Origin: Synergistaceae bacterium
GTDB lineage: Bacteria > Synergistota > Synergistia > Synergistales > Synergistaceae
Assembly (NCBI GenBank): GCA_045601305.1
Contig: JAZRZG010000030.1
Location: forward strand, 1 to 51,803
Direction of reading: 5' to 3'
DNA length: 51,803 nt
Each line of letters opens with the position of its first letter. The stretch's first letter is position 1. A program made the position numbers and the translations under genes. The notes beneath the pieces were generated by a model. It made no database searches. It was given only the letters and a program-made list of their open reading frames with translations, and had not been told where the DNA came from. Below are positions 3,735 through 51,803 of the stretch, piece by piece.

Positions 3735-5609
3735 ATGTCAGAAAAAAATGTTAAACTGAAGATTACAAGAGACAATTTTCTTCCTGTGTGCCGCGCCGAT
3801 ATGGAAAAACGCGGCTGGGAGGAGCTTGATTTCCTTCTGATTTCAGGTGACGCTTACGTTGACCACCCGAGTTTCGGACACGCGATAATTTCGCGCTGCC
3901 TTGAATCGGCAGGCTTTCGTATCGGAATAATTGCCCAGCCTGACTGGCGCGGTACGGAGGATTTTACGAAAATGGGTCGTCCGCGTTTCGGAGTATTTGT
4001 AACGGCGGGAAATCTCGATTCAATGCTCAATCATTACACCGCAATGCTTAAGAAAAGGCACGGCGACAGTTATTCCCCGGGAGGAAAAGCGGGACTTCGT
4101 CCTGACAGGGCAACAATAGTTTACTGCAACCGTATTCGTGAAATATGGAAAGACATTCCGCTTGTCATAGGCGGAATTGAAGCAAGTCTGAGACGTTTCG
4201 CGCATTATGATTACTGGAGCGATTCCGTGCGCCGTTCGCTTCTTGCGGACAGCCGCGCGGACATTCTCTCATTCGGCATGGGCGAACTTTCAACTGTTGC
4301 GACAGCACGCGCGCTTGCCGAGGGAAAGCCTGTAAGCGCAATCAGAAACGTTGCAGGAACCTGCTGGAAAACGCATGAACCGTCCAACGCAAAGGACGCT
4401 GTCGTGCTTCCGTCGTTTGACGAAATATGCGGCGACAAAAAAAGTTTTGCCGAAGCGTTTCGCATGCAGTACGCGGAGCAAAATCCATATTTAGGCAAAA
4501 GGCTTATTCAAAATCAGGGCGCGTGGCATATTGTCCAGAACAGACCGTCGCGCCCGCTGACGACCGCTGAAATGGACAAAGTGTACGCGCTGCCCTACAC
4601 GCGCTGCTGGCACCCCGATTACGACGCGCACGGCGGCGTACCTGCGCTTGCAGAAGTTAAATTCAGCATTACAAGCCACCGCGGCTGCTTCGGCGAATGT
4701 GCCTTCTGTGCGATAGCAAGTCATCAGGGAAGAATAATTCAGCGCCGCAGCGACGAATCGATAATCTCAGAAGCGGAAAGTTTCAGAAATATGCCGGATT
4801 TCAAAGGATATATTCACGATGTCGGAGGTCCTACCGCAAACTTTATGCAACCTGCCTGCAAAAAGCAGTGCAAAAGCGGAGCCTGCGGCGGCAAATTCTG
4901 CCTTTTCCCGAAGCCGTGCGCCACGCTTGAAGCAGACCACAGCGATTATATTTCGCTTTTGAGAAAACTGCGCGCGCTTGACGGAATAAAGAAAGTCTTT
5001 ATCCGTTCGGGTGTCCGCTATGATTATATGCTTGCCGACAGAAACAATGATTTTCTTTCTGAACTCTGCGAACATCATATAAGCGGACAGCTCAAAATCG
5101 CGCCGGAACATGTCAGCCCCAAGGTTTTGTCGCTTATGAGAAAGCCGGGCAGAGAAGTTACGCTTGAATTTATGAAAAAATATACAGCGGTCAATGAAAA
5201 ACTCGGTTTAAAACAGTTCCTTGTGCCCTATTTTATCTCCTCGCACCCCGGCGCAACGCTTGATGACGCCGTTATGCTTGCGGAATTTATACGCGACACG
5301 CGTCTTCGCCCTGAACAGGTGCAGGATTTTACTCCAACGCCGGGTTCTGCCGCAACTTGTATGTATTACAGCGGGTATGATCCATTCAGCGGAAAAGAAG
5401 TGTACGTCGCAAAAAGCGCGAAAGAAAGGAAAATGCAGCGCGCGCTCATGCAGTATTGGCTGCCTAAAAATGAAGAACTTGTGCGTGAAGCGCTGATAAG
5501 GGCAGGCAGAAATGATTTAATCGGAAACGCGCCGAAATGCCTTGTAAAAGCGCGCGGCAGCAATAAAAATCAAAAAATCAGTAAAAATACCCATGCCCGA
5601 CGCGGATAA
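3735..5609 (+). CDS. ygiQ: YgiQ-family (UPF0313) radical SAM protein
   Basis: About 624 aa. Has the CxxxCxxC cluster GCFGECAFCAI and the N-terminal motif LLISGDAYVDHPSFG typical of YgiQ. ATG 3735 with GGAGA upstream is preferred over TTG 3723. Confidence 0.85.
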   Translation: MSEKNVKLKITRDNFLPVCRADMEKRGWEELDFLLISGDAYVDHPSFGHAIISRCLESAGFRIGIIAQPDWRGTEDFTKMGRPRFGVFVTAGNLDSMLNHYTAMLKKRHGDSYSPGGKAGLRPDRATIVYCNRIREIWKDIPLVIGGIEASLRRFAHYDYWSDSVRRSLLADSRADILSFGMGELSTVATARALAEGKPVSAIRNVAGTCWKTHEPSNAKDAVVLPSFDEICGDKKSFAEAFRMQYAEQNPYLGKRLIQNQGAWHIVQNRPSRPLTTAEMDKVYALPYTRCWHPDYDAHGGVPALAEVKFSITSHRGCFGECAFCAIASHQGRIIQRRSDESIISEAESFRNMPDFKGYIHDVGGPTANFMQPACKKQCKSGACGGKFCLFPKPCATLEADHSDYISLLRKLRALDGIKKVFIRSGVRYDYMLADRNNDFLSELCEHHISGQLKIAPEHVSPKVLSLMRKPGREVTLEFMKKYTAVNEKLGLKQFLVPYFISSHPGATLDDAVMLAEFIRDTRLRPEQVQDFTPTPGSAATCMYYSGYDPFSGKEVYVAKSAKERKMQRALMQYWLPKNEELVREALIRAGRNDLIGNAPKCLVKARGSNKNQKISKNTHARRG

Positions 5610-5679
5610 AAATATGGACAAACAGATATAAAACGAGTAAAATGCTTTAGGTTGCGAAACAGAACAGGAGGTATATGAC

Positions 5680-6096
5680 ATGAAGAAGACTGTTGCAGCA
5701 ATACTTGCGGTATTTGCAATGCTTGCAGCCGGACAGGCGGCATTTGCGGACGTAAAAGTAGGTTGTGTTGACGGAGACAAAGTGCTTCGCGAATATCCAA
5801 AATTTGTCGCGGCTCAGAGACAGCTTGCACAGGTTGGACAGAGTAAAGAAACTGTCGCTCGTGCTGCCTTTGACAAGGAGAAAAACGAAAGCAAAAAAAA
5901 TCAAATAGTGCAGAATATGCAGAAGGAAATGGCTCAGGAAGAAGAAAAACTTATGAAGCCTGTCCTCAAGACAGTAAACGATACAGTACAGCGTGTCGCG
6001 CGCCAGAAAGGCATAACGGTTGTAGTCAACAAAAGCATTGTCTATTACGGCGGAACTGATATTACAAACGACGTAATCGCAGCGCTTAAGAGATAA
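5680..6096 (+). CDS. skp: OmpH/Skp-family periplasmic chaperone
   Basis: 138 aa. Signal peptide MKKTVAAILAVFAMLAAGQAAFA, then a K/E/Q-rich coiled-coil body. AGGAGG lies upstream. Confidence 0.7.
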   Translation: MKKTVAAILAVFAMLAAGQAAFADVKVGCVDGDKVLREYPKFVAAQRQLAQVGQSKETVARAAFDKEKNESKKNQIVQNMQKEMAQEEEKLMKPVLKTVNDTVQRVARQKGITVVVNKSIVYYGGTDITNDVIAALKR

Positions 6097-6100
6097 CAAA

Positions 6101-6126
6101 AAGACGCCGTGCGGCGTCTTTTTTCT
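6101..6126 (+). terminator. Rho-independent terminator
   Basis: aagacgcc-gtgc-ggcgtctt hairpin followed by ttttct. Confidence 0.8.
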
Positions 6127-6131
6127 TAAAG

Positions 6132-6722
6132 ATGATGACACTTTTTTGGATTTTTGCCGGATATTGCGCAGGCAGCTGCCCGACTGGCTATCTGCTTGCA
6201 AAATATCTCAAAAACACGGACATAAGAGAATTCGGCTCAGGCAATATCGGAGCGACAAACGCAGGGCGGCTGCTCGGAAAAAAATATGCCGTCTTCATCG
6301 CGCTCTTTGATATGCTTAAGGGCGGAATTGTTGTTCTGCTTGCCTCGTTGTGCGGACAGGGAACATGGGCTGTCGCTCTTGCAGGAGTGTTTTCCGTGCT
6401 CGGACACAACTATCCTGTATGGCTGAATTTCAAAGGCGGCAAAGGAGTGGCTACAACCTTCGGAGTGATATTTTTTTACAATTTCTTCACTCCGCTGCCG
6501 GCGCTTCTCGGCGGCGCTGTATGGTACGTTGTTATGAAAACAACGCGATACGTCTCCGCCGCTTCAATCATCGGACTTTTTGCCGCTGCGCTGCTTACAG
6601 TTGTTTTCCAAATGCCCGCGCCATATTTTTACGCTTCATTTGCTCTTGCAGTTTTATCCGCGTACAGGCACAAAGCCAATATAAAACGCATAAAAGCAGG
6701 TACGGAAACAAAGGTAAACTAA
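6132..6722 (+). CDS. plsY: glycerol-3-phosphate acyltransferase PlsY
   Basis: 196-aa polytopic protein with GSGNIGATN and NFKGGKGVAT motifs. Confidence 0.9.
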   Translation: MMTLFWIFAGYCAGSCPTGYLLAKYLKNTDIREFGSGNIGATNAGRLLGKKYAVFIALFDMLKGGIVVLLASLCGQGTWAVALAGVFSVLGHNYPVWLNFKGGKGVATTFGVIFFYNFFTPLPALLGGAVWYVVMKTTRYVSAASIIGLFAAALLTVVFQMPAPYFYASFALAVLSAYRHKANIKRIKAGTETKVN

Positions 6723-22199: not shown

Positions 22200-22274
22200 G
22201 GGCGGATAGCTCAGCGGGAGAGCACCTGCCTTACACGCAGGGGGTCGTAGGTTCGAAACCTATTCCGCCCACCA
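22200..22274 (+). tRNA. tRNA-Val (anticodon UAC)
   Basis: Acceptor GGGCGGA/TCCGCCC, anticodon arm CCTGC-CTTACAC-GCAGG, T-loop GGTTCGAAACC, CCA encoded. Confidence 0.9.
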
Positions 22275-22289
22275 TGACAACTTATTTGC

Positions 22290-22366
22290 GGAGCTGTAGC
22301 TCAGTCGGTTAGAGCGTCGGCCTGTCACGCCGAAGGTCGCGAGTTCGAGTCTCGTCAGCTCCGCCA
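22290..22366 (+). tRNA. tRNA-Asp (anticodon GUC)
   Basis: Acceptor GGAGCTG/CAGCTCC, anticodon arm TCGGC-CTGTCAC-GCCGA, discriminator G, CCA encoded. Confidence 0.9.
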
Positions 22367-22381
22367 TTTTGAGAAGTCAAA

Positions 22382-22457
<76 letters not shown>

Positions 22458-22472
22458 CTGATAAGAAAATTT

Positions 22473-22547
22473 GCGGAAGTAGCTCAGGGGTAGAGCACAA
22501 CCTTGCCAAGGTTGGGGTCGCGGGTTCAAATCCCGTCTTCCGCTCCA
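22473..22547 (+). tRNA. tRNA-Gly (anticodon GCC), copy 1
   Basis: GCGGAAGTAGCTCAGGGGTAGAGCACAACCTTGCCAAGGTTGGGGTCGCGGGTTCAAATCCCGTCTTCCGCTCCA, with anticodon loop TTGCCAA. Confidence 0.9.
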
Positions 22548-22570
22548 TTTTTTATAATATCGCGGTTGCT

Positions 22571-22645
22571 GCGGAAGTAGCTCAGGGGTAGAGCACAACC
22601 TTGCCAAGGTTGGGGTCGCGGGTTCAAATCCCGTCTTCCGCTCCA
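22571..22645 (+). tRNA. tRNA-Gly (anticodon GCC), copy 2
   Basis: 75/75 nt identical to 22473-22547, 23 nt downstream of copy 1. Confidence 0.9.
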
Positions 22646-22650
22646 AAATA

Positions 22651-22675
22651 ACAGGCGGGCAGCCTGTGTTTTTTT
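22651..22675 (+). terminator. Rho-independent terminator of the tRNA array
   Basis: acaggc-gggca-gcctgt hairpin followed by g plus T7. Confidence 0.75.
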
Positions 22676-22700
22676 GTCTAAATGCCATATCGTAATACAA

Positions 22701-22730
22701 ACGGACTGAATGATGTTCAGTCCGTCTTTT
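22701..22730 (+). terminator. second terminator-like hairpin
   Basis: Perfect 10-bp stem acggactgaa/ttcagtccgt, a 5-nt loop, then ctttt. Confidence 0.5.
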
Positions 22731-23157
22731 ATGCGCGGATGAAAAATCAGAAGGTATATTTTGCAAGATATTTTTTCAAAATCGTGTCAAAATGACACGC
22801 CATTGTCTATCTGCCGGAGTATAATATATTGTGAAAAGACAAACACCGAGAACGTAAACAGACGGTAAGCAGCGGGGGATGATAGACAGATATTGTCTAT
22901 TTGAGTTTTATGTTCAATCTGATATAATCAACTTGGACAGAAAGGCTTAGAAATGATTGTTGCCGACGTTCAGGCGCAGTATTCAGATACGAAGAGGTAT
23001 ATTTGCTAATGTGGGGCTTTTTTCTGCATTTATTGGTTTCGTTTATTATGTTATGTGCGCACCTGCTAATCGCAGTTTGTTCATTAGCTGTGCATCTTAT
23101 TGTTGTAATATTTACTTTTTTATTTCATCTGATATTTTAGCTTGATGATGAAAAATA

Positions 23158-23185
23158 TTGTAAAACTATCGTAACAAGTTATAAT
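23158..23185 (+). promoter_or_regulatory. candidate sigma70 promoter of the three-gene island operon
   Basis: TTGTAA (23158-23163), a 16-nt spacer, then TATAAT (23180-23185), about 120 nt upstream of the first ORF. Prediction by eye only. Confidence 0.4.
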
Positions 23186-23308
23186 AAATTCTGGAAACAC
23201 AGAAGCCTAAACCATGTGAGTGCAAAGAATTGTGGAAAAACAATGTCCATGTATTTTTTACACTTAAACTGATATGCTTGACAGAAAAATTGATCGGAGG
23301 TTGTTATT

Positions 23309-23896
23309 ATGGGTTTTTGGGATCTTCTTGAAGAAGTCGCCTCTGTCGGTATTGATTTACTGAATAAAGGTATTGAAGAAAGTATGCGCCGTCAGGAGAA
23401 GAATCTCCAGTCATACGCCAAAAAACATAATTTATCAAAAGAGCAGGTATCTCAGCTACGAGAAAAAATGCATCGCAGAACACACGAAGAGTTTGGAGCA
23501 GATCGAACAGGAATGGACTGTCGTCCTGAAGATTTTTCAATAAGCAGAGGGGATTATTTGAGCGATGCTGTCTCATCTGCGCCGGGAGAACCGGGTGTTT
23601 ATATACTTTATCTTTACGGAAGAGTAATGAAATGCGGGGTTGCAAGCTACGGGCAAGGAATTCGCTGGAGATTCACGCAGTATTACAATCTAAACTATGA
23701 CAACAAAGCAAGGTGCGGAGATTACTGGTCGGTAAGTCCTGAAAACAGGGACAGTATTACTGTGGCATGGCAAGCATGCCCGCCTCGTGTCTGTAATGAA
23801 CTGGAATACAAGTTGTTTAAGAAATATGGTAAAGGACCTTGGGCAAAACGAGCACCTGTAGCTTCGTACACAAATGAATGGAAATTATTGATTTAA
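23309..23896 (+). CDS. GIY-YIG-like nuclease-fold protein with about 95-aa helical N-terminal extension
   Basis: GGAGG 8 nt upstream of the ATG. The C-terminal half reads GVYILYLYGRVMKCGVAS..GIRWRFTQYYN...NELEYKLFKKYG. This reproduces the GIY-(9 aa)-YIG spacing, the conserved Arg and the distal Glu of GIY-YIG modules (compare the UvrC N-terminus). The N-terminal half is unassigned. Confidence 0.5.
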   Translation: MGFWDLLEEVASVGIDLLNKGIEESMRRQEKNLQSYAKKHNLSKEQVSQLREKMHRRTHEEFGADRTGMDCRPEDFSISRGDYLSDAVSSAPGEPGVYILYLYGRVMKCGVASYGQGIRWRFTQYYNLNYDNKARCGDYWSVSPENRDSITVAWQACPPRVCNELEYKLFKKYGKGPWAKRAPVASYTNEWKLLI

Positions 23897-23938
23897 CGAT
23901 TTGAATTTACCAATACAACTTTAGGTGAGGGGTATTTA

Positions 23939-26383
23939 ATGTTAAAATTTCTTCGCAGAAAATTTGACCGAAATTTCTTGAGTTTGAGATTGCATGAGCA
24001 GTTAGGATTGTTGTTTGCCTTTTATTTATTTTTCTATCTTGTATTCTTATTCATTTTAACTAACTTTGGAGGCAGTGCGCCAGAAGTTAAAAATTGGCGT
24101 TGGTGGGTATATGCACACATGGTGGATGCAGGTACCATCATTGAAAGTGCCAAGATTAACACACCTGTTGTTAATATCTGCGGCTTCTTAATGAATATAC
24201 TTAATATATTCCTTTTCGGCGGTATATTTATTTCGCTTTTCACGAACTTTTTCGAAGAATCCGCAAAAAGAGTCCATAACGGACAAGCGCGTGACAAAAT
24301 AAACAAAGAGCATCATGTTATCTTAGGCTGGGACGTTGTCGGTGCCTCCATAGTCCACAAATTGATTGCAAAGAAGAAAGACAAAAAACCGATAGTAATT
24401 TTGTCATCCCGTAATCCGGAGGATATTCGTGCCGATATTATGTCGTATGATAAAAGCGAGATTAAAAATCAAAAAAAACATGATCTGAGCGATAAGTTGA
24501 AAAAACAAATATATATTCTCAACGGTTCTTTTACCAACCGTGATGAATTGAATAGTGATGCGCTCATGCTGCGCAAAGCGGAAACAATCTACATTCTCGG
24601 CGAAAACAATAGCACAAGAAATGACAGTGATACGATTTCTACAGCCCTTCATTTCGCTAATCTGATTAATGATAAGCAAAAAATGAAAAATAACTCCACT
24701 ATTCCCTTGATAGCAGATATCCGCAGTTTTTCGATGTTCAGCCAATTAAAAAGTAAAGTAACAGGAAATTTGAACAACAATCAAGAGAACAATAAGAACA
24801 ATAAGAACAATAAGAACGATGCTTCGAAACCAAGTGGGAATAATTCGCCGCAAAGTGGCGAAGATTTAGGACACGATAAAGATTCAGGACACTATGCTGC
24901 TGTTTTTAACTTCTGTGAAAAGAGGGCAAGAAGGATTTGGAGCCATATTTCGGAAGAAAAAGATAAGATGTTCAGCCAATTAAAAAGTAAAGTAACAGGA
25001 ATTTTGAACAACAATCAAGAGGACAATAAGGATGCTTCGCAGCAAGGTGGCAAAGGTTCAGGCCACGATAAAGGTCAAGGACGCTATGATGCTGTGATTT
25101 TTAACTTCTATGAAAACTGGGCAAGAAGAATTTGGAGCCATATTCCGGAAGAGAAAGATGAGAAGTCTTATTATCCGCTGGCTTATGTCCCTGTTACCCA
25201 AAATAATTTTGTGCATCTGATAATTATAGGTTTCGGACAAATGGGGCAGGCGCTTGCAGTTGAAGCAGCGAGAGTCGCGCATTACGGCACAGGCAAAAAC
25301 ACGCGGATAACAGTTATAGACAACAATATGACAGAGCGTAAAGCAAAATTTGTTGCGACATTCGCGCTAAAGCATGATAAGGATAACGAAATTTACAGCT
25401 GGTATGAAGAAAACGGTTACAAAGCAGATGTTGAGTTTGTTTTTAAAGACAACAGCGCGGAAGATGAAGAAATACGCGAATTTCTTGTAGAAACGGCAAA
25501 AGAAGCTGAAGCAGGAAACCAGATTCCGACGCTTGCGATCTGTTTCTCAAAGCTTGACACAGCATTTGAGACAGCTTTGTCCCTGCCGATAGAATTCACC
25601 ACGGCAGAAGTGAAGTCGTTTACTGACAAGCGGATCCCTGTACTTCTTAGGAACGAAAGCGATTATAGAAGAAGCAGCAGCAGTAAGGATAGCCCTGTAA
25701 AGGATAATGATAAAGAAAGTGCAGAAAAGAAGGACGCTGCAGCGAACCGGGAAAAAGAACACAAAAGAGATATAGACAATATAGATTTGTTTGGAAATTT
25801 GAAAGAATGCACAGGTTTTGACGAGCAAATAGAAACATTTGCCAAGGTATTGAATATGCTGTATAAGATGTTTAATGATGATAATGGGGTGTTTAATAAT
25901 AATGAAGAGAGTAAGGCACCCGATGATGAAGATGATAAGGAGGATATAGAAAAACCTGACTATTGGTGGAAAAAAGCAGACGAATATAGCCGCTGGGCAT
26001 CCCGTCATCAGGCAGCGGCTTTTGTTGAAAGATTAAGGTCTATGGGATATAAGTTTGAAGCAAACACAGACATCTGTTTGAAGACATCTGAGCGTTTAAA
26101 TAGAGCTGATGTAGACGATTGGCAGCAGCGAGGCAAAGAGTTATTCGGCGATGATTTCGATAATAGACTCGGTATAGCCGAACATTATCGTTGGAGTGTT
26201 GAAAAATGGTTGTGTGGTTATCGGTATGATAAAGAGAAAGTTACTGAATTACACAAACATCCCTGCCTTATTGATTATTCTAAACTTAACGAGAAGAATA
26301 AAAATAATGACCTTCGTTCTACGGCACTTGCAAAATGGATTTTGGAAAACTATTGCGGCGTAACGTTAGACCGTAACGAGTAA
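23939..26383 (+). CDS. CASTOR/POLLUX-like 2TM pore + two Rossmann (RCK/TrkA-N-like) domains + C-terminal RyR domain membrane protein
   Basis: SD GGTGAGGGG. TM1 at about aa 22-43. Pore-helix-like WRWWVYAHMVDAGT. TM2 at about aa 78-104. Then HHVILGWDVVGASIVHKL (aa 125-) and a second FVHLIIIGFGQMGQALAVEAA. The C-terminal AEHYRWSVEKWLCGYRYDKEK..HKHPCLIDYSKLNEKNKNND fits the RyR-domain (PF02026) pattern as recalled. Confidence 0.6.
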   Translation: MLKFLRRKFDRNFLSLRLHEQLGLLFAFYLFFYLVFLFILTNFGGSAPEVKNWRWWVYAHMVDAGTIIESAKINTPVVNICGFLMNILNIFLFGGIFISLFTNFFEESAKRVHNGQARDKINKEHHVILGWDVVGASIVHKLIAKKKDKKPIVILSSRNPEDIRADIMSYDKSEIKNQKKHDLSDKLKKQIYILNGSFTNRDELNSDALMLRKAETIYILGENNSTRNDSDTISTALHFANLINDKQKMKNNSTIPLIADIRSFSMFSQLKSKVTGNLNNNQENNKNNKNNKNDASKPSGNNSPQSGEDLGHDKDSGHYAAVFNFCEKRARRIWSHISEEKDKMFSQLKSKVTGILNNNQEDNKDASQQGGKGSGHDKGQGRYDAVIFNFYENWARRIWSHIPEEKDEKSYYPLAYVPVTQNNFVHLIIIGFGQMGQALAVEAARVAHYGTGKNTRITVIDNNMTERKAKFVATFALKHDKDNEIYSWYEENGYKADVEFVFKDNSAEDEEIREFLVETAKEAEAGNQIPTLAICFSKLDTAFETALSLPIEFTTAEVKSFTDKRIPVLLRNESDYRRSSSSKDSPVKDNDKESAEKKDAAANREKEHKRDIDNIDLFGNLKECTGFDEQIETFAKVLNMLYKMFNDDNGVFNNNEESKAPDDEDDKEDIEKPDYWWKKADEYSRWASRHQAAAFVERLRSMGYKFEANTDICLKTSERLNRADVDDWQQRGKELFGDDFDNRLGIAEHYRWSVEKWLCGYRYDKEKVTELHKHPCLIDYSKLNEKNKNNDLRSTALAKWILENYCGVTLDRNE
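24734..25165 (+). repeat. intragenic tandem duplication (234-nt unit + 198-nt unit)
   Basis: Copy 1 (24734-24967) and copy 2 (24968-25165) both begin atgttcagccaattaaaaagtaaagtaacagga (33 nt identical). Both end in ...RRIWSHI(S/P)EEKD. Copy 1 carries extra N/K-rich sequence. Confidence 0.9.
24787..24817 (+). repeat. 9-nt microsatellite (gaacaataa) x3.4, in frame
   Basis: gaacaataa gaacaataa gaacaataa gaac, encoding the NNK NNK NNK run inside copy 1 of the duplication. Confidence 0.95.
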
Positions 26384-26422
26384 ATACAGCAAATAAAGTA
26401 ATCTGCGGGAGGAAGAAAGACA

Positions 26423-29400
26423 ATGACAAATGATAGGTATGATGTTTTTATAAGCTGGGCACACCAGGATGGTCGAGACAATATTGGAAATGTAAAAAAA
26501 GCAATTATTGAGGAGCATCAAAATCAGTATCCAAAAGAAGAAGAATTGAAGATATTCATGGATACAGATATAGAAGATGCTCAGGATTGGAAGGCTCGTA
26601 TTTCAGATGAGCTTAGGAAATGTCAAGTATTTCTATCGATTCTCAGCCCAAACTATTTTGGCTCGAAATTTTGTACGCGCGAGATGTCCCTTTGGAAGAA
26701 TCATGAGATTCGGAACAGTTTATTAAACAAAGCTACTCTGCCTGTCTATTTTATCAAATTGGATGAAGATCCATATAAATCTGAAGATGTAAATGTAAAC
26801 AAAGCATTTATACAGCAGATTCATGGTGAACTTAAGCCCTGGTTTGGTAATCAGAGGACGTATTCTTATGAAGAAATCAAAAATTGTATCAAAGAATCTC
26901 ACATTATTGATACACTCAAAAAACGATTTGACGACATAAAAGAGATTAATAAGAGTAACAAACATAGTAACCTGCCTGACCCTGATCCAGATTTTGTCGG
27001 CAGAGTACAGGAGATAAGTGATATTAACGCTGAAATTAAGCATCACATTGTACTTTTGCGCGGTGAGGAAGGTATTGGAAAAACCTCGGTTGCCCTTGCG
27101 TATGCGTCAGCATATGCTGGTGAGTATCCCGGGGGTAGATATATGATTGACTGTCAAAACGCAAAGAATATTCCTGAGGCTTTTGCGCATCTTCTCATCA
27201 ATGGAAAACTTGTTGCAGATAACCTTGGCATTACAACTAATTATGTGGGAGCTGATGATAACGAATACATATTAAATAGCAAAATTGTTCCAGCCCTTAC
27301 TAAGGCTAATGGGAAAAAACTTATTATTCTTGATGATGTGACTGAGCTTAAAATGTTGCAAACTGAAGTTGTAAATAAGTATCTTAATTGGCGGAGAGAG
27401 GCTTGTGTTGATATTATCGCAACAACGAATGTTGATGGAGCAGAGAAAGTCCAATACAAAGATACAGACCCTGTTTATGGGTACAATATAGATCCGTTGT
27501 CCGAAGTTGATGCTTTGGAAATGCTGCGGAATGAACGTGATTTCTCCGAAAAAAGCAATGATGAAGACTATGCCAAAAAAATTATTGAGCGTCTTAACCG
27601 TCATGCGGGGGATCTTAATGAAGCGGCAAACAGACTTAAGCAAGAAGCAGAGTTAACATATGATAAATTGTGTGAATATATTCTTAATCACACAATAGAC
27701 GGATTGCGCAAACGTGTTGTAGAAAAAATGGAGGAGGATGAAAAAAACATAGCTGAATATGCGGCCTTGCTGCCTGCTGACTGTGTGCATATAGACTGGC
27801 TCAAAGAATTATTTGTTCTTCAAAAAATCAGCCGTGAAAGAGTAACTGAAAATATTGAAAATGCATGGGAAAATATCCAAAAAAATCCCAAAACGTTACA
27901 ACATACCGGTCGTGGTCATAGTCAAATGGAGAAAAATTACAGTGCGTATATTGAAGCGTCCATGGAAAATCGTAAGAAAAATAAAAAACTAAAAAAACTG
28001 GAAGAACTGATTATAAAGCGTATAAACAATAATAAACTTGGTGTGGAAGAAATTAATTCTATATACCAGACCATTAATAAGTGGTGGAATAAAAAATATT
28101 TTGTTTTTGCTGCCAGTCTAATAGCATCTGATAAATTGTATGAGGCTGTTAAAATCTCCGGTTCAATCGCAAGAAAATATTTTGAACTTGTTAATAAAAT
28201 TTACGATAGTCATGAAATTGAAAAAAATAAGTTGGATGAAAAAACTCCGGGCTTGATGGAATGTATTGCCAAATGCCTTTCGGAATTGGGTAAATATAAA
28301 AAAGCCAAGGAAATTACCGAGAAAATTTTCAAAAGGAAAGAAAAAATAGACGCAGATCTTGAAAGCACACTGCTGGCTGAAAGTGCCTATGCAGATTGTT
28401 TGTTTGATTGTGGTGAATATAAAGAAGCCAATAAACATTATGAAAAAATATTTAAAAGTCGGTCAAAACTTAATGCGAACAATCCTCATACAATAAACGC
28501 TGAAAGTGCTTTGGCTAGAAGTTATGCAAGTATTGGTCAGCTTGAAGAAGCTTTGAAACACTATAATAAGGTGGTACGGTTAAAAGAGAAACTGCATATG
28601 GATTCCCTTTGGGCAAAACTGGAACTTGCGATTGGTTATTCTGATGTCGGAGATTATAAAAATGCTTGTAAGATATGTGAAAGCAGTGTTAAAACTGAAA
28701 CCGATGAATTGAGACAAATAAGCGCAAAAAGTGTTTTGGCAGGTATTTATACTGTTAGCGGTAAATACACTGACGCGAGGAATCTTAGAGATGAAATATT
28801 TAAATTTAGAGAAGAAAACTTAGGTAAAAAACATCTTCTTACGCTTAGAACGCAGGGACGATTGGCTGCCAGTTATTCTATGCTTGGCGACTATAAACGA
28901 GCTCGTGACTTGCGTCAAAAAGTATTAGATGCAAGGAAAGATATTTTTAGTAAAGACCATCCGGAAATACTTAAAGCACAATTAGCCTTAGCCGCAAGTC
29001 ATTCTGAGTTGGGCGAATATAAAAAGGCTCATGATCTGCGGAAAGATGTGTTAACAGCGAGACAGAAGAAAAAGCTTCCTGACGACCATCCTGATATACT
29101 CAAGGCAAAATTAGCTTTAGCTGTCAGTCATACGGAGTGTGGGGACTACATTAAATCATTAAATTTGCGAGAAAAAATCTACGACACTGTGGCTGCAAAA
29201 GACTATAATCCACTCACTCCTGCTGTTGCTTTGGCACTTGCAGACAGTTATTATAATTTAGGTAAGTATAGTGCTGCGCGTAGAATATATGAAAATATAC
29301 GAAATTTTTATTGTAACGAAACCGAGGCTAAAAATAAACGTGGGGTCTTTAAAGGTTTGCGCGTAAAAAATATGGCGCCGTACATCATTGCGACAGATAA

Positions 29401-29944
29401 AAAACTTGCGGACTGTGATTTTGCCGAAAAATATTATCAGAAAGCTGAGGAAAAATATAAATTAATACTGAACGTGCTTGAAAAACAATTTGGCAAGGAT
29501 CATCCGGAAGCGCTTAGAATCAAAACATGTGTTGCAAACTGCTATTCCGCTCTTGGGCAGTATGATGAGGCTTTAAAGAGCTACGAGACAATAGAAGAGG
29601 AGTTAAAGGTCAAATTAAAAGATGAGAATCATCCCGATAGAATTTGTGTATTGAGCGGAAAGGCACACAATTATTTTATGAATGGAAAGTATGAAGATGC
29701 CTTGAAGCTTCGAAAGGATATTCTTGAAAAACGGAGAAGAATCTTGGGAGAAGATCATCCGGAAACACTTAAAACCAGAAGACGTGTGGCTGATTGTTAT
29801 TTAAAGCTTAAAAAATACAATGAGGCACTAAACATCTATAATGAAATTTTGGATAAAACAAAAGAGAAATTGGGTGAAGAACACCCGTGTACAAAAAAAG
29901 TGCAGCAAGGAATTGCTGAAGCGGCAAAAATGCTGAAAGGTTAA
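26423..29944 (+). CDS. TIR domain / NB-ARC (STAND P-loop NTPase) / TPR-repeat protein
   Basis: SD GGGAGGA. N-terminal YDVFISWAHQD...FLSILSPNYFGSKFCTREMSLW (TIR, with candidate catalytic Glu87 at 26681-26683). Walker A GEEGIGKTS (K220). Walker B KKLIILDDV, then IIATTN. The C-terminal roughly 570 aa are kinesin-light-chain-type TPRs (repeated LG.Y..A....(K/E)(V/I)...R...LG..HP(D/E)(I/T)L). Confidence 0.8.
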   Translation: MTNDRYDVFISWAHQDGRDNIGNVKKAIIEEHQNQYPKEEELKIFMDTDIEDAQDWKARISDELRKCQVFLSILSPNYFGSKFCTREMSLWKNHEIRNSLLNKATLPVYFIKLDEDPYKSEDVNVNKAFIQQIHGELKPWFGNQRTYSYEEIKNCIKESHIIDTLKKRFDDIKEINKSNKHSNLPDPDPDFVGRVQEISDINAEIKHHIVLLRGEEGIGKTSVALAYASAYAGEYPGGRYMIDCQNAKNIPEAFAHLLINGKLVADNLGITTNYVGADDNEYILNSKIVPALTKANGKKLIILDDVTELKMLQTEVVNKYLNWRREACVDIIATTNVDGAEKVQYKDTDPVYGYNIDPLSEVDALEMLRNERDFSEKSNDEDYAKKIIERLNRHAGDLNEAANRLKQEAELTYDKLCEYILNHTIDGLRKRVVEKMEEDEKNIAEYAALLPADCVHIDWLKELFVLQKISRERVTENIENAWENIQKNPKTLQHTGRGHSQMEKNYSAYIEASMENRKKNKKLKKLEELIIKRINNNKLGVEEINSIYQTINKWWNKKYFVFAASLIASDKLYEAVKISGSIARKYFELVNKIYDSHEIEKNKLDEKTPGLMECIAKCLSELGKYKKAKEITEKIFKRKEKIDADLESTLLAESAYADCLFDCGEYKEANKHYEKIFKSRSKLNANNPHTINAESALARSYASIGQLEEALKHYNKVVRLKEKLHMDSLWAKLELAIGYSDVGDYKNACKICESSVKTETDELRQISAKSVLAGIYTVSGKYTDARNLRDEIFKFREENLGKKHLLTLRTQGRLAASYSMLGDYKRARDLRQKVLDARKDIFSKDHPEILKAQLALAASHSELGEYKKAHDLRKDVLTARQKKKLPDDHPDILKAKLALAVSHTECGDYIKSLNLREKIYDTVAAKDYNPLTPAVALALADSYYNLGKYSAARRIYENIRNFYCNETEAKNKRGVFKGLRVKNMAPYIIATDKKLADCDFAEKYYQKAEEKYKLILNVLEKQFGKDHPEALRIKTCVANCYSALGQYDEALKSYETIEEELKVKLKDENHPDRICVLSGKAHNYFMNGKYEDALKLRKDILEKRRRILGEDHPETLKTRRRVADCYLKLKKYNEALNIYNEILDKTKEKLGEEHPCTKKVQQGIAEAAKMLKG

Positions 29945-30095
29945 GAAGCGCAGAGATTAAGAAGTATAAAATTTATATATGCGTTGAACATAGTGGAGGG
30001 GTACCATAAATGTACGGTGCTGTGAATGTACAATAGCAGTGTACTGCTAAAATTTGCACGGTGCAGAGAAAGAATAATGGAAAATCACAATAAAA

Positions 30096-30127
30096 ACGGC
30101 TTGGGAATGATCCCAAGCCGTGATTTT
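30096..30127 (+). terminator. Rho-independent terminator (likely end of the island operon; bidirectional)
   Basis: acggcttggga-atga-tcccaagccgt 11-bp stem followed by gatttt. There is an A-run upstream. Confidence 0.7.
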
Positions 30128-30826
30128 GACCTAAATTTCCATTTGGGTACAGAAAACAACAGGTATCAGTATCGTTTTCGCAGAAAAATATCAAAAATAG
30201 ATTTCTGACTTCGATATCCAATTCCTGAAGGAGAATTTTGAACCGGCAGTGTTTCATTGCTTTTTTGTGTTTCAGCCTTCGGCAATTTTGGCTAAAGCCT
30301 TGAAAAACCCTGATTCTGACTGCATTCCCGTACAGCCTGCCCGCTTTGCCGCCCTAAAACGAGTTAAGTGCGAAGTCCGCAACCCGCCGCTGCCACCGGC
30401 AGTCGTTTGAGCCCTAAGCTCTGCGAGAGGCGCGACCCGGAGGACCGTTAATCAAATCGTATCCACTCCGAAAATAATCCCGTCCGGCACTGACACGTAA
30501 GCGCAACCTACGATTTTTAATAAAACTGCAAATGTAAAGACCGATGTACAGTGTGGGTGAAACTTATGCGCGGTCACGCTCCCGCCGCTGTACCAAACAA
30601 TGCAGGCTGAGGGGTAAACCCGACAGCGAGAAAATATTTTACTCTTATTTTCTACAATGTCAATACCTTTTTTCAAAAAAAATGTAAAAAATCTGCAAGA
30701 AAATTGTATAGTCTGCACGGAGGCAGTAATAGCAAGGGTTTAGAAGAGCCAATGACTGATAAGAAGCAGTAAAGACCATTCCAAGAAAGATCGACATTTA
30801 GGATTCAAAATTCAATACCGGTACGC

Positions 30827-30836
30827 GGGGGGGGGG
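30827..30836. repeat. G10 homopolymer tract
   Basis: cgc-gggggggggg-caac in non-coding DNA about 200 nt upstream of feoAB. Confidence 0.95.
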
Positions 30837-31035: not shown

Positions 31036-33393
31036 ATGTATCTTTCTGATTTGCAGATTGGCGAAAGCGCGGTTATAAAGAGTGTCGGCGGAGAAAAAAC
31101 GCTTCGCAGGCATTTTCTTGATATGGGGTTAACTCCGGGCAGTGAATTGAAGCTTGTCAAAAAAGCTCCTATGGATGACCCGCTTGAATTTATGGTGCGC
31201 GGTTATGAACTGACGCTTCGGCTTGCTGACGCAAGGCAGATTGAGGCTGAAAAAATAAGCTCGGTTCAAAAGGCGCTGTCTGAGCAGTGTATGGAGGATA
31301 CAAGTCACCCGCAGCTCGGCGAATTTGGTGTTTATCATACAAGCAGCAGCGGCGAGGAAATTCCGGAGGGCGCGCGTGTCAGTTTTGCCCTTGCGGGAAA
31401 TCAGAATACGGGCAAATCAACGCTTTTTAATCAGCTGACAGGTTCAAATCAGCATGTAGGCAACTTTCCGGGGGTTACGGTTGACCGCAGGGAGGGAAAA
31501 ATGCGCGGCTGTGACAACGCTGTTATCATTGACCTTCCGGGCGTTTATTCTCTTTCTCCATATACGAACGAAGAACTTGTCACGAGAGATTTTCTGCTTA
31601 AGGAAAAGCCTGACTGTATCATAAACATTGTTGACGCGACAAATATTGAGCGCAATTTGTATCTGACGATGCAGCTTATTGAGCTGAATATTCCGACGGT
31701 GCTTGCGCTTAACATGATGGACGAGGTGCGCGACAGCGGCGGCACTATTCTTGTCAATAAACTGGAAAACGCGCTGGGTATTCCTGTTGTGCCTATTTCT
31801 GCGGCAAACAACGAGGGTACGAATGAAACGATACGTCACGCAATGCATGTCGCGCGTTTCCGCGAACGTCCTGGGAGGCTTGATTTCTGCGACGCGGACG
31901 GAGAATACGGGGGCGCGGTGCACCGCTGTATTCACAGCGTAAGTCACTTGATTGAGGATCATGCAAAGAGGTGCGGCATACCGGTACGTTTTGCCGCGAC
32001 GAAGCTTGTTGAGGGCGACGCTCCGATTATGGTGCAGCTTGGGCTGAATGACAATGAAAAGGATATGCTTGAGCATATTATTGTCGAAATGGAGCGTGAA
32101 ACGGGCATGGACAGGGAAGCGGCAATGGCTGACATGCGCTTTGATTTTATAGAAAAAATCTGTGCCGCGACTGTTGTAAAGCCTGTGCAGAATCTTGCCC
32201 GCGCAAGAAGTCTGCGTTTCGATAAAATCCTTACGGGAAAGTACACGGCGCTTCCTGCGTTTTTCGTGATTATGGGGCTTGTTTTCTGGCTTACGTTCGG
32301 GGTTTTCGGCGCTGTGCTGTCTGAGAGTTTTGAACGGCTGATTGCTCGCGTTGCGGCTGTATGCGACGCCGCGCTGAGCGCCTACGGGCTTAACAGTGTT
32401 GCTCATTCGCTGATTATTGACGGGGTTTTTGCGGGGGTCGGCTCGGTTCTCAGTTTTCTGCCTGTTATAGTAATACTTTTCTTCTTTCTTTCGATTATTG
32501 AGGACACCGGATATATGGCGCGTGTCGCTTTTGTCATGGACAGACCGCTTCGCAAAATAGGACTTTCGGGGCGCAGTTTTGTGCCGCTGCTTATTGGTTT
32601 CGGCTGTTCTGTTCCAGCAATTATGGCTGCGCGTACTCTGCCTTCCGAACGCGACAGAAAAATGACGATATTTCTTACGCCGTTTATGAGCTGTTCGGCG
32701 AAGCTGCCGATTTACGCGCTGTTCACGGCTGCGTTTTTCCCGCGTACGCAGGGCACGCTTGTTATGACGGGGCTGTACCTGTTTGGGATTTTAAGCGGCG
32801 CTGTTTTTGCAATGGTTATGAAAAACAGTGTGTTTACGGGCTATCCTGTGCCTTTTGTAATGGAGCTTCCCAACTATCGTTTCCCGAACGCGAAAACGGT
32901 TGCTCTGCTTATCTGGGACAAGGCAAAGGATTTTCTTACGCGCGCGTTCACTGTGATTTTTGCCGCTGCTATCGTAATTTGGTTTTTGCAGACCTTTGAC
33001 ACGCGGCTGAATGTTGTTACAGACTCCTCGCGGAGTCTGCTTGCGCTGCTCGGCGGAATTTCCGCGCCGTTGTTCAAGCCGCTTGTCGGTGTCAGCGACT
33101 GGAAAATTTCAACGGCGCTTATTACGGGGCTTATGGCAAAGGAAAGTGTTGTCAGCACTTTGACTGTTCTGCTCGGCGGTTCGGCGGCCGCGATAAAAGA
33201 TATGTTCACGACAAAAACCGCGCTTGTGTTTCTCACGTTTACGCTGCTTTACACCCCCTGTGTCGCGGCGATAGCTGCGGTCAGGCGGGAACTCGGCGGA
33301 AGGTTTGCCTGGATTTTTGCGGTGGGACAGTGCGTTATCGCCTGGGCAGCGGCGTTTATGGTTAAAATTCTGCTGACGCTGGCGGGAATTTAA
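31036..33393 (+). CDS. feoB: ferrous iron transporter FeoB with N-terminal fused FeoA domain
   Basis: aa 1-70 are FeoA-like (LSDLQIGESAVIKSVGG...GLTPGSELKLVKKAPMDDPLEFMVRGYELTLR). Then the G-domain GNQNTGKSTLFNQLTG, DLPG, NMMD, followed by a polytopic C-terminal permease. Confidence 0.9.
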   Translation: MYLSDLQIGESAVIKSVGGEKTLRRHFLDMGLTPGSELKLVKKAPMDDPLEFMVRGYELTLRLADARQIEAEKISSVQKALSEQCMEDTSHPQLGEFGVYHTSSSGEEIPEGARVSFALAGNQNTGKSTLFNQLTGSNQHVGNFPGVTVDRREGKMRGCDNAVIIDLPGVYSLSPYTNEELVTRDFLLKEKPDCIINIVDATNIERNLYLTMQLIELNIPTVLALNMMDEVRDSGGTILVNKLENALGIPVVPISAANNEGTNETIRHAMHVARFRERPGRLDFCDADGEYGGAVHRCIHSVSHLIEDHAKRCGIPVRFAATKLVEGDAPIMVQLGLNDNEKDMLEHIIVEMERETGMDREAAMADMRFDFIEKICAATVVKPVQNLARARSLRFDKILTGKYTALPAFFVIMGLVFWLTFGVFGAVLSESFERLIARVAAVCDAALSAYGLNSVAHSLIIDGVFAGVGSVLSFLPVIVILFFFLSIIEDTGYMARVAFVMDRPLRKIGLSGRSFVPLLIGFGCSVPAIMAARTLPSERDRKMTIFLTPFMSCSAKLPIYALFTAAFFPRTQGTLVMTGLYLFGILSGAVFAMVMKNSVFTGYPVPFVMELPNYRFPNAKTVALLIWDKAKDFLTRAFTVIFAAAIVIWFLQTFDTRLNVVTDSSRSLLALLGGISAPLFKPLVGVSDWKISTALITGLMAKESVVSTLTVLLGGSAAAIKDMFTTKTALVFLTFTLLYTPCVAAIAAVRRELGGRFAWIFAVGQCVIAWAAAFMVKILLTLAGI

Positions 33394-51680: not shown

Positions 51681-51803
<123 letters not shown>

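Follow-up and report, generated by a model that had tools for sequence, protein, structure and literature searches.

A candidate RyR-domain cation channel encoded beside a TIR-STAND gene on a low-GC island of a Synergistaceae bacterium

The window analyzed here is a stretch of 51,803 nucleotides (nt) from a Synergistaceae bacterium (assembly GCA_045601305.1, contig JAZRZG010000030.1, positions 1 to 51,803), and the subject is a pair of adjacent forward-strand genes within it. The first (23939..26383) is an ATG-started open reading frame (ORF), preceded by the Shine-Dalgarno-like sequence GGTGAGGGG, that encodes an 814-amino-acid (814-aa) membrane protein with two transmembrane (TM) helices and a pore loop (2TM), tandem RCK/Rossmann domains, and a C-terminal RyR domain. 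The second (26423..29944) follows after a 39-nt gap containing a GGGAGGA Shine-Dalgarno sequence and encodes a 1173-aa TIR-STAND NTPase-TPR protein. With a probability of roughly 0.55, we interpret the pair as a two-gene, Thoeris-like abortive-infection module on a small low-GC island, in which the product of the TIR domain gates a cation channel. The 814-aa protein would be the candidate ligand-gated cation-channel effector, and the 1173-aa protein the candidate sensor and signal generator. An earlier sequence-only reading of the 814-aa gene had proposed a CASTOR/POLLUX-like pore joined to RCK and RyR domains. The segments on which it relied are all present in the ORF translation, namely, WRWWVYAHMVDAGTIIES at aa 53-70, HHVILGWDVVGASIVHKL at aa 125-142 after TM2, FVHLIIIGFGQMGQALAVEAA at aa 424-444, about 300 aa beyond HHVILGWDVVGASIVHKL as it had stated, and AEHYRWSVEKWLCGYRYDKEKVTELHKHPCLIDYSKLNEKNKNNDLRS at aa 747-794 near the C terminus.

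The 1173-aa protein is composed of a TIR domain (26438-26929, forward strand; aa 6-169) with a candidate catalytic glutamate, E87, in SKFCTRE87M, a P-loop NTPase (aa ~191-450) with the Walker A motif GEEGIGKT and the Walker B motif LIILDD, and a TPR array (aa ~579-1163; TPR_12, 208 bits). Its Pfam matches are TIR_2 (38.1 bits; cut-off, 28), TIR (27.7 bits), AAA_16, and nSTAND3, and its N terminus matches the TIR-like NCBIfam model FxsC_Nterm. PADLOC matched no Avs model to this protein; the only Thoeris component matched was ThsB1, which was not significant (expect value [E], 0.013).

In a single-sequence Pfam scan of the 814-aa protein, only two models exceeded their cut-offs, RyR (28.3 bits; cut-off, 27.4; aa 744-794) and the generic Rossmann model F420_oxidored (25.9 bits; cut-off, 21.6; aa 429-478). 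Sacchrp_dh_NADP matched weakly in the RCK2 region, and NCBIfam and PHROGs returned nothing informative for this gene. Such a scan had been proposed as a check on the initial domain assignments. It recovered RyR, but TrkA_N stayed below its cut-off and neither Ion_trans_2 nor Castor_Poll_mid (at E ≤ 1) was matched. This outcome is ambiguous as a refutation, and we therefore used family-level evidence.

A word-indexed search found only 4 relatives, both with the single sequence and with a 5-sequence profile, and gave a misleading impression of rarity. An exhaustive profile search of 1.84 billion sequences representative at 50% identity found 3,275 representatives at E ≤ 1e-3 and 262 at E ≤ 1e-30, mostly of 600-750 aa and matching end to end. 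The 814-aa protein belongs to a large, unnamed family spread over many phyla. Because full-length homologues occur in many phyla, its architecture (2TM pore loop, tandem RCK, and RyR) is far more than a chance arrangement, and we hold this part of the interpretation with high confidence. In the family alignments (A2, 127 sequences; A3, 13 closer members), conserved blocks run over the whole chain, from an N-terminal D-R...Q helix and TM1 onward. Those between TM2 and RCK2 read Y-I-L-G-E...D229 and P-F-N-F-Y-E-x-W-A-R-x-L-W, those in RCK2 read V-H-L-V-I-V-G431-F-x-x-M-G436...H-Y and I-T-x-I-D461, and the RyR block reads L-A-x-x-E-H749-x-R-W752-x-A-E-R...G-W...H774-P...P-Y..L...K..D791. By a rough tally of match ranges, about 85% of the 150 best family matches reach through the RyR block; the C-terminal regions of members without it gave no Pfam match to another sensor domain. 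No family member was found in a plasmid collection (tblastn) or in a pattern-limited scan of IMG/VR viral contigs, and on the latter result we regard the family as host-side. Among the viral matches of the 814-aa protein, a phage "potassium channel domain" protein ranked first, and phage RyR-domain proteins came next.

An AlphaFold model of the 814-aa protein, built with alignment A2, had a mean confidence score (pLDDT) of 82.8 and a predicted template modeling score of 0.83; a run with 5 sequences gave a pLDDT of 43 and was not used. The low-confidence parts of the model are an insert at aa ~290-380 and two acidic or low-complexity linkers. The two N-terminal TM helices, which the sequence-only reading had placed at aa 22-43 and 78-104, are modeled at aa 18-43 and 76-113 with pLDDT values of 86-96. 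TM1, the outer helix (23990..24067, forward strand), is hydrophobic and is preceded by a basic amphipathic helix at aa 2-14. TM2, the inner helix, continues into a cytoplasmic linker (24164..24277, forward strand) and carries conserved G89, G95, and N103. Between the helices lies a loop of 32 aa (pLDDT, 87-95) that contains the pore loop proper (24095..24151, forward strand), consisting of a W-rich helix at aa 53-62, a filter-like turn formed by D63-A64-G65, and a short helix at aa 64-71. The basic N terminus (MLKFLRRKFDR) and the RCK domains, which would be cytoplasmic, fit a 2TM channel topology with both termini inside the cell.

Across the family, the pore loop has the motif W-x7-D-[P/S/A]-G-N, with W55 present in 73/119 sequences, D63 in 76/123, and G65 in 80/124, and with N66 modal. 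The filter-like stretch of the window protein is V-D-A-G-T-I-I, compared with the family mode D-P-G-N. No T-x-G-Y/F-G motif occurs anywhere in the 814-aa sequence, in agreement with the earlier remark that the K+ channel signature TVGYG is missing. The predicted filter of the plant channel CASTOR is A-D265-S(A)-G-N-H-A, as the sequence-only reading had given it; Asp265 is essential, the D265N substitution abolishes current, and the channel is Ca2+ selective (PMC6697748). Beyond TM2, the family conserves R-R...G115...Y...N-H125-x-V-I-I-G130 leading into RCK1, where G95, G115, H125, and G130 are near-invariant in A2, and this linker and RCK1 start align with the start of the CASTOR/DMI1 soluble domain, NH-x-LILGW. 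The likeness of D-x-G-N after a Trp-containing helix to the CASTOR filter appears to be real but partial. The original proposal of a CASTOR-like protein is borne out by the DMI1/CASTOR-like RCK1 and, in part, by this motif; the number of TM helices, the missing N-H-A element, and the lack of a Castor_Poll_mid match set the protein apart from CASTOR.

The tandem Rossmann/RCK assignment was borne out by both profile and structure comparisons. When the family profile was compared with Protein Data Bank (PDB) sequences, RCK1 (N-lobe, 24311..24724, forward strand; aa 125-262) matched DMI1 (7vm8; E, 6.6e-10) and CASTOR (6o6j; E, 1.8e-9 and 2.9e-9) over profile positions 117-231, from the post-TM2 linker through the RCK1 N-lobe. 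All other entries among the 60 best of the 129 PDB matches were RyR proteins, and with the 5-sequence profile the RCK1 match to CASTOR/DMI1 was already at 3e-5. The RCK2/Rossmann lobe (25208..25651, forward strand; aa 424-571) is modeled with the canonical beta-alpha-beta Rossmann pattern and contains G431-F-G-Q-M-G436, with D461 ending beta-2, as a candidate dinucleotide site. Rossmann motifs of this type form dinucleotide/adenosine-ribose sites, and G431, M435, G436, and D461 are at least 90% conserved in A2. A Foldseek search of the PDB with the whole model matched the tandem-RCK channels GsuK (4gx0, E of 1e-6; 4gx5, E of 1.1e-5; 572-616 columns), the DMI1 ring (7vm8; E, 1.5e-5; 527 columns), Slo1 (5tj6; E, 1.9e-5; 698 columns), MthK (6u5r; E, 2e-5; 235 columns), and the CASTOR ring (6o7a; E, 4.7e-5; 546 columns).

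The fused bacterial RyR domain, also anticipated by the sequence-only reading, was recovered by Pfam at the score given above and by the family profile, which matched RyR repeats at 2e-22 (Bt-hRyR chimera), 4e-17 (RyR2), and 2e-11 (Bacteroides thetaiotaomicron 3NRT). The Repeat12-like module spans aa 664-812 (25928..26374, forward strand), with the canonical repeat at aa 744-794 (nt 26168-26320). Its model matched human RyR3 Repeat12 (residues 848-1055; E, 6.8e-4; template modeling score, 0.58). This fold match covers the full two-lobed Repeat12 (206 columns), yet the first lobe has no significant sequence repeat; a second RyR repeat at aa 660-722 was considered and is unsupported (hhalign probability, 3.6%). 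Phage RyDEP binds 3' cyclic ADP-ribose (cADPR) and ADP-ribose (ADPR) through H75, W78, H100, and D117, of which H75 and D117 form a glycosidase dyad, and in its crystal structure linear ADPR sits in the pocket (PMC13232231). In the 814-aa protein, H749, W752, H774, and D791 have a spacing (0/+3/+25/+42) identical to that of the RyDEP residues and of the aligned animal repeats, and they are conserved in 114/126, 121/127, 109/123, and 118/126 family sequences, respectively (89-95%). On this alignment, the RyR repeat retains the ligand-contact residues of a known nucleotide pocket. That the protein is a nucleotide-gated channel with RyR as the sensor we put at about even odds.

The same residues could serve another purpose. 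The RyR module might be a signal terminator or threshold device, with the RCK2 Rossmann lobe gating the pore by NAD+, NADH, or ADPR, and with RyR hydrolyzing or sequestering cADPR-type molecules, thereby preventing self-activation or resetting the system. The equivalents of the RyDEP catalytic dyad are retained as H749 and D791, the RCK2 GxGxxG...D dinucleotide motif is intact, several loci have stand-alone RyR ORFs next to the channel gene, as would suit a buffer, and the best structural match, GsuK, is a tandem-RCK channel. GsuK is modulated by nucleotides (NAD+ and ADP). However, most RyDEP homologues with the same residues bind without cleaving. Of the 8 phage RyR homologues tested, 6 bind 2'/3'cADPR, and the two that were characterized do so with nanomolar affinity and no cleavage (PMC13232231). 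The fusion of RyR to the effector itself, and elsewhere to RelA_SpoT and AAA proteins, also fits a sensor better than a regulator. We therefore consider the terminator role unlikely relative to RyR as the channel's sensor.

The genomic neighborhoods of the family connect the candidate channel to TIR-like genes. A pattern-seeded scan of one genome per species gave 44 loci, of which 42 had a recognizable family ORF; with the window, 43 loci were compared. A locus was counted as having a TIR-like neighbor if a gene no more than 5 kb from the family member exceeded the gathering cut-off of Pfam TIR_2 or DUF4062. Such a gene was present in 19/43 loci, and 2 more had weak matches only (L026, TIR_2 at 24.1 bits; L041, DUF4062 at 16.5 bits), so that the operon link to TIR-STAND pointed out by the sequence-only reading is no isolated case, with TIR or TIR-like DUF4062 genes near family members in 19-21 of the 43 loci. 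The partner was TIR_2 in the window and in L008, L012, L013, L014, L020, L021, L024, L031, L035, and L042; DUF4062 in L007, L009 (two genes), L011, L016, L025, L029, and L037; and both in L040 (three genes). DUF4062 is a TIR-like NADase that makes linear ADPR and forms the Swarozyc phage-defense system (10.64898/2026.05.01.722283). The linked loci belong to Bacteroidota, Cloacimonadota, Hydrogenedentota, Planctomycetota, and Acidobacteriota. Partners are mostly adjacent and co-directional, with typical gaps of -34 to 800 bp (the closest being -34, 2, 3, 3, 13, 20, 22, 40, and 133 bp); in L007, L011, and L020 the partner is on the opposite strand. Most are fused to STAND NTPases (NACHT, nSTAND1, AAA_16, or NB-ARC) and TPR, WD40, or HEAT arrays. 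Short TIR proteins without a Pfam-detected STAND domain are found in L012, L013, and L035, the first two with a hydrophobic TM-like segment. In a Hydrogenedentota metagenome-assembled genome (L014), a SIR2_2-TIR_2 fusion (4844-6256) has the channel-RCK-RyR gene on one side and an nSTAND1 gene on the other; this partner protein carries two NAD-consuming domains.

Because TIR and DUF4062 genes are found in only a few percent of genomes (10.64898/2026.05.01.722283; 10.64898/2025.12.03.692087), a rate above 40% beside one family would amount to enrichment by orders of magnitude, as an estimate and not a computed statistic. We consider it likely that the channel family is functionally coupled to TIR-like genes.

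RyR domains also occur in these neighborhoods outside the channel gene. C-terminal RyR domains are fused to RelA_SpoT and LSDAT_prok (SLOG) (L020:13824-16505), to RelA_SpoT and TPR (L022:2732-5422), and to a domain without an assigned family (L016:11362-14148), and an AAA/Torsin-like protein (L009:17406-20348) has an RyR match of 27.1 bits, just below the 27.4 cut-off. SLOG (LSDAT_prok) and RyR domains thus co-occur in the same bacterial neighborhoods. The SLOG, Macro, CARF, and SAVED sensors are likewise small domains found joined to unrelated "executioner" domains, and the distribution observed here suggests that RyR acts as a movable sensor module on different effectors. Stand-alone RyR ORFs (98-164 aa; 116-126 bits) lie directly upstream of the channel gene in three loci (L015:9696-9992, L011:9501-9995, and L031:8744-9193), with two further candidates of the upstream type at L016:11005-11319 (local hidden Markov model only) and L007:9678-9971 (position and size only). 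The ORFs run in the same direction as the channel gene and occur in several phyla. Their products could act in trans to make up a two-lobed RyR module, or could buffer or hydrolyze the signal.

Taken as a module, the two genes would operate as follows. The TIR-STAND-TPR protein (26423-29944) would be the sensor, with its TPR array recognizing a phage cue. The NTPase would then oligomerize, and the TIR domain would turn NAD+ into an ADP-ribose-derived nucleotide, either a cADPR isomer or linear ADPR. The 814-aa protein would be the effector, most likely a tetrameric 2TM pore-loop cation channel with a D63-A-G filter, whose pore would hang on a tandem-RCK gating ring ending in the RyR Repeat12-like module. 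The nucleotide would bind the H749/W752/H774/D791 pocket of the RyR repeat, and the RCK2 GxGxxG...D site may bind the same nucleotide or read NAD(H). The ring would then open the pore, and the resulting cation flux or depolarization would arrest or kill the infected cell. Linear ADPR is both the product of DUF4062 and the molecule seen in the RyDEP crystal, so the ligand may be ADPR itself and not a cyclic isomer. With ADPR as the ligand, the system would, by analogy, work like TRPM2, an ADPR-gated cation channel. A more specific version, a prokaryotic pathway from TIR through a cADPR-type nucleotide and the RyR repeat as its direct receptor to a Ca2+-permeable, CASTOR-type aspartate-filter pore, we regard as doubtful.

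Several observations weigh against this interpretation, some of which concern the channel. No ion-channel model, including Ion_trans_2, matched the 814-aa protein in Pfam, and Slo-like_RCK (21.5 bits; cut-off, 24) and TrkA_N (17.0 bits; cut-off, 23.8) were both below threshold. The pore motif is only 60-65% conserved in what is a noisy alignment, the protein does not have CASTOR's N-H-A after D-A-G, and the AlphaFold model, which covers the monomer and not the tetramer or its pore geometry, shows the loop as a helix-turn-helix, unlike an extended K+-type filter. The two TM helices might accordingly be no selective pore but an anchor or disruptor, with ligand-induced oligomerization breaching the membrane nonspecifically, as has been proposed for several CBASS and Thoeris TM effectors. 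Neither Ion_trans nor Ion_trans_2 is matched, the loop is modeled without an extended filter, and many nucleotide-activated defense effectors are simple TM disruptors. However, the loop between the helices is conserved in both sequence (W...D-P-G-N) and length, with a pLDDT above 90, the conserved TM2-linker-RCK1 junction can be aligned with CASTOR/DMI1, and the fold match to genuine RCK channels includes the TM part (GsuK, 572-616 columns; MthK, 235). We consider a disruptor quite improbable. A housekeeping cation channel, for example, one for K+ or Ca2+ homeostasis under NAD(H) or ATP control with no role in conflict, is very improbable. RCK-regulated channels are common housekeeping proteins, and the TM2-RCK junction has a weak, nonsignificant likeness to Escherichia coli Kch (E, 0.083), but the gene's low-GC island adjoins a tRNA cluster, the phyletic spread of the family is patchy, defense-type neighbors occur throughout, and TVGYG is absent. 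A gated cation channel with a role in conflict remains our preferred reading of the 814-aa protein.

Other observations concern the link between the two genes. About half of the loci (22-24/43) have no detectable TIR-like neighbor; many of these have very short flanks. The five closest homologues, from Synergistaceae, lack a TIR gene and lie beside a DUF4194/MksE gene and an SbcC-like ATPase in a Wadjet-like arrangement (L003:6532-10552), and a Kiritimatiellae homologue (L001:3497-9763), also without TIR, lies beside a Response_reg+TCAD9 gene and a His_Phos_1 gene. The Kiritimatiellae context is ternary-conflict-system-like, and these TIR-less members are still in conflict-type contexts. PADLOC assigned neither gene of the window to a known system. 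Furthermore, TIR-STAND proteins are usually read as self-contained NAD+-depleting effectors (10.64898/2025.12.03.692087), and the product of DUF4062 is linear ADPR and not a cyclic signal (10.64898/2026.05.01.722283). The two genes might therefore be neighbors and not partners. The TIR-STAND protein would then be an autonomous, Avs-like NADase, and the channel a separate single-gene defense or stress system, e.g., ATP/ADP or Ca2+ gated, that merely shares islands with it. The exclusion of TIR-STAND proteins from the Thoeris survey as autonomous NAD+ depleters (10.64898/2025.12.03.692087), the loci without a TIR-like gene, and the Wadjet-like and TCAD9 systems beside the Synergistaceae and Kiritimatiellae homologues are in line with this. 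However, the linkage is tight and mostly co-directional, with gaps of 2-40 bp or overlaps in the window, L012, L013, L021, L024, L025, L026, and L037. It recurs with two TIR-like families, with STAND-fused and short TIRs, and in five phyla, and chance co-location at such a rate is implausible for genes found in a few percent of genomes. Mere co-location is thus, in our estimate, improbable, and we retain the two-gene module as the preferred interpretation.

The window's copy of the channel gene itself might be impaired by a 79-aa duplication within the soluble domain. An in-frame tandem duplication (24733..25166, forward strand) consists of copy 1 at 24733-24966 (aa 265-343) and copy 2 at 24967-25166 (aa 344-409), with three matched segments (direct repeats D2, D3, and D6) at 82-97% nucleotide identity and with indels. 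It encodes an N/K/G-rich insert and a degenerate second copy of the FNFYENWARRIW element, and a AGAACAATA microsatellite of 3.6 units lies inside it (24786-24817). The duplicated segment is single-copy in all homologues aligned (A1 and A3), and only copy 2 matches them; the duplication is recent. The insert is poorly modeled, with a pLDDT of 40-55 at aa 290-380.

The two genes lie on a low-GC island (22700..30000; GC, ~0.32-0.42, versus 0.45-0.52 in the flanks) that holds three co-directional genes. Directly 5' of it is a tRNA cluster, Val(TAC)-Asp(GTC)-Phe(GAA)-Gly(GCC)-Gly(GCC) (22200-22645), in which both tRNA-Gly copies are identical, followed by terminator-like hairpins on the forward strand (22651-22725). 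No forward-strand terminator-like site was found from the start of the third gene at 23309 to 30245. The search for att-like direct repeats around the island found none, and the ORFs scanned included no integrase. Housekeeping genes flank the island, with a CtpA-type protease upstream and FeoAB downstream.

The third gene (23309..23896, forward strand) encodes a 195-aa protein with no assigned function and is co-directional, 42 nt 5' of the 814-aa gene. The 195-aa protein had no Pfam, PHROG, PADLOC, or PDB match. It has at least 100 homologue clusters (34-71% identity) in unrelated toxin/immunity or defense-type contexts, where the neighbors include Colicin-DNase/WHH with DUF6985, PDDEXK, HEPN/nucleotidyltransferase, LRAT, and kinases. 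None of its homologues occurs in the 44 family loci, and they are not beside RyR or TIR genes. The lack of a domain match and the unrelated contexts of the homologues led us to reject the gene as a third component of the module, and a GIY-YIG-like assignment made by eye was likewise rejected for want of a domain match. It is probably co-transcribed island cargo and not a conserved partner. It represents a separate, "dark" family of island genes. Elsewhere in the window, a G10 homopolymer (30827-30836) lies in a ~1.1-kb noncoding stretch 5' of feoAB (31036-33393); the tract could serve phase variation by slipped-strand mispairing, and the intergenic region had no Rfam match. The window closes within a bacterial 16S rRNA gene (Rfam, 94.6 bits), whose initial 121 nt are present at 51682-51803.

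Compared with known channels, the 814-aa protein is CASTOR-like but is not a member of the CASTOR family. Like CASTOR, POLLUX, and DMI1, it has an aspartate-based D-[S/A]-G loop after a W-containing helix in place of TVGYG, an inner helix followed by ...G-x8-N-H-x-(L/V)-I-L-G-W into RCK1, and a tandem-RCK gating-ring fold. CASTOR has four TM segments, of which the final two form the pore (PMC6697748). In contrast, the 814-aa protein has 2 TM helices, reads D-A-G-T (family, D-P-G-N) where CASTOR has ADS/AGNHA, has a canonical GxGxxG RCK2 and a C-terminal RyR, has no Castor_Poll_mid match, and is found in a bacterial defense island. With GsuK, MthK, and BK (Slo1) it shares a 2TM pore loop fused to RCK, and with GsuK and BK two RCK lobes per chain; GsuK, Slo1, and MthK are its best whole-model structural matches. 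Unlike these channels, it lacks TVGYG, falls below the Pfam cut-offs for them in sequence, carries the additional RyR domain, and is operonic with TIR-like sensors. Its RyR domain resembles those of PF02026 (animal Repeat12/34, 3NRT, and RyDEP) in passing the Pfam cut-off, in the RyR3 848-1055 fold, and in the H/W/H/D tetrad. It differs in being host encoded on a channel/RCK chassis, whereas phage RyR proteins are free-standing and animal repeats lie within the 5,000-aa RyR, and in having one canonical repeat by sequence. Animals have a cADPR-RyR axis. The resemblance to this axis and to TRPM2, an ADPR-type nucleotide opening a Ca2+-permeable channel, is conceptual and an analogy only; there is no pore homology with TRPM2.

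Among defense systems, the pair resembles Thoeris (type X, and types II, V, and VII with TM effectors) in that a TIR gene adjoins a membrane or ion-channel effector and in the logic of an NAD-derived signal switching on a cell-killing effector. The Thoeris survey described membrane or ion-channel effectors in types II, V, VII, and X, the type X effector being an "ion channel," and deliberately discarded TIRs within Avs/STAND proteins (10.64898/2025.12.03.692087). The type X pair from a published metagenome scaffold (L050:4358-5495) contains ThsK (4358-4984), which ends 4 nt before the TIR gene; this effector has 208 aa, belongs to Ion_trans_2, carries a TLTYGGF filter, and has neither RCK nor RyR domains. 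Assignment of the 814-aa protein as a type X effector was rejected, since ThsK is unrelated and type X TIRs are unlike the TIRs beside the family. Every plasmid-borne relative of the type X TIR belonged to a type II (macro-domain) system or was a pseudogene. In the family studied here, unlike in Thoeris, the TIR is mostly STAND fused or is replaced by DUF4062. In this respect the partner genes, with an N-terminal TIR or DUF4062, a STAND NTPase, and TPR or WD40 repeats, resemble Avs/AVAST TIR-STAND proteins and Swarozyc. However, those systems are described as single-gene NAD+ depleters, whereas here the gene is recurrently paired with an RyR-domain channel. The module is one of TIR/NAD-derived signaling with a membrane effector and is outside every described Thoeris type (ThsA-ThsL). 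The literature searched, which omits most subscription journals, described neither a host RyR-domain effector nor the 814-aa family.

The function of bacterial RyR domains was obscure until a 2026 preprint, which covers viral proteins only, reported that phage RyR proteins bind or cleave 2'/3'cADPR (PMC13232231); no host-side role for a bacterial RyR domain was described in the literature searched. An RyR domain fused to a channel and paired with ADPR-making enzymes predicts a new Thoeris-like effector class and a new sensor domain. It also suggests that some "Avs-like" TIR- or DUF4062-STAND proteins signal to a partner, beyond depleting NAD+. The omission of TIR-STAND proteins from the TIR survey leaves a gap where this module sits (10.64898/2025.12.03.692087). 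For animals, it has long been asked if cADPR acts on RyRs and at which site, a question for which a small bacterial RyR channel would be a tractable system; for plants, the CASTOR/DMI1 pore and RCK1 would have a bacterial relative in the 814-aa protein. If the more specific pathway from TIR to a Ca2+-permeable pore, regarded above as doubtful, is correct, SARM1/TIR cADPR synthesis, the RyR Repeat12 pocket, and the CASTOR/DMI1 Ca2+ pore would all trace to one bacterial immune module, and the RyR repeat, found also on RelA/SpoT and AAA effectors, would be a general sensor of second messengers alongside SLOG, Macro, CARF, and SAVED.

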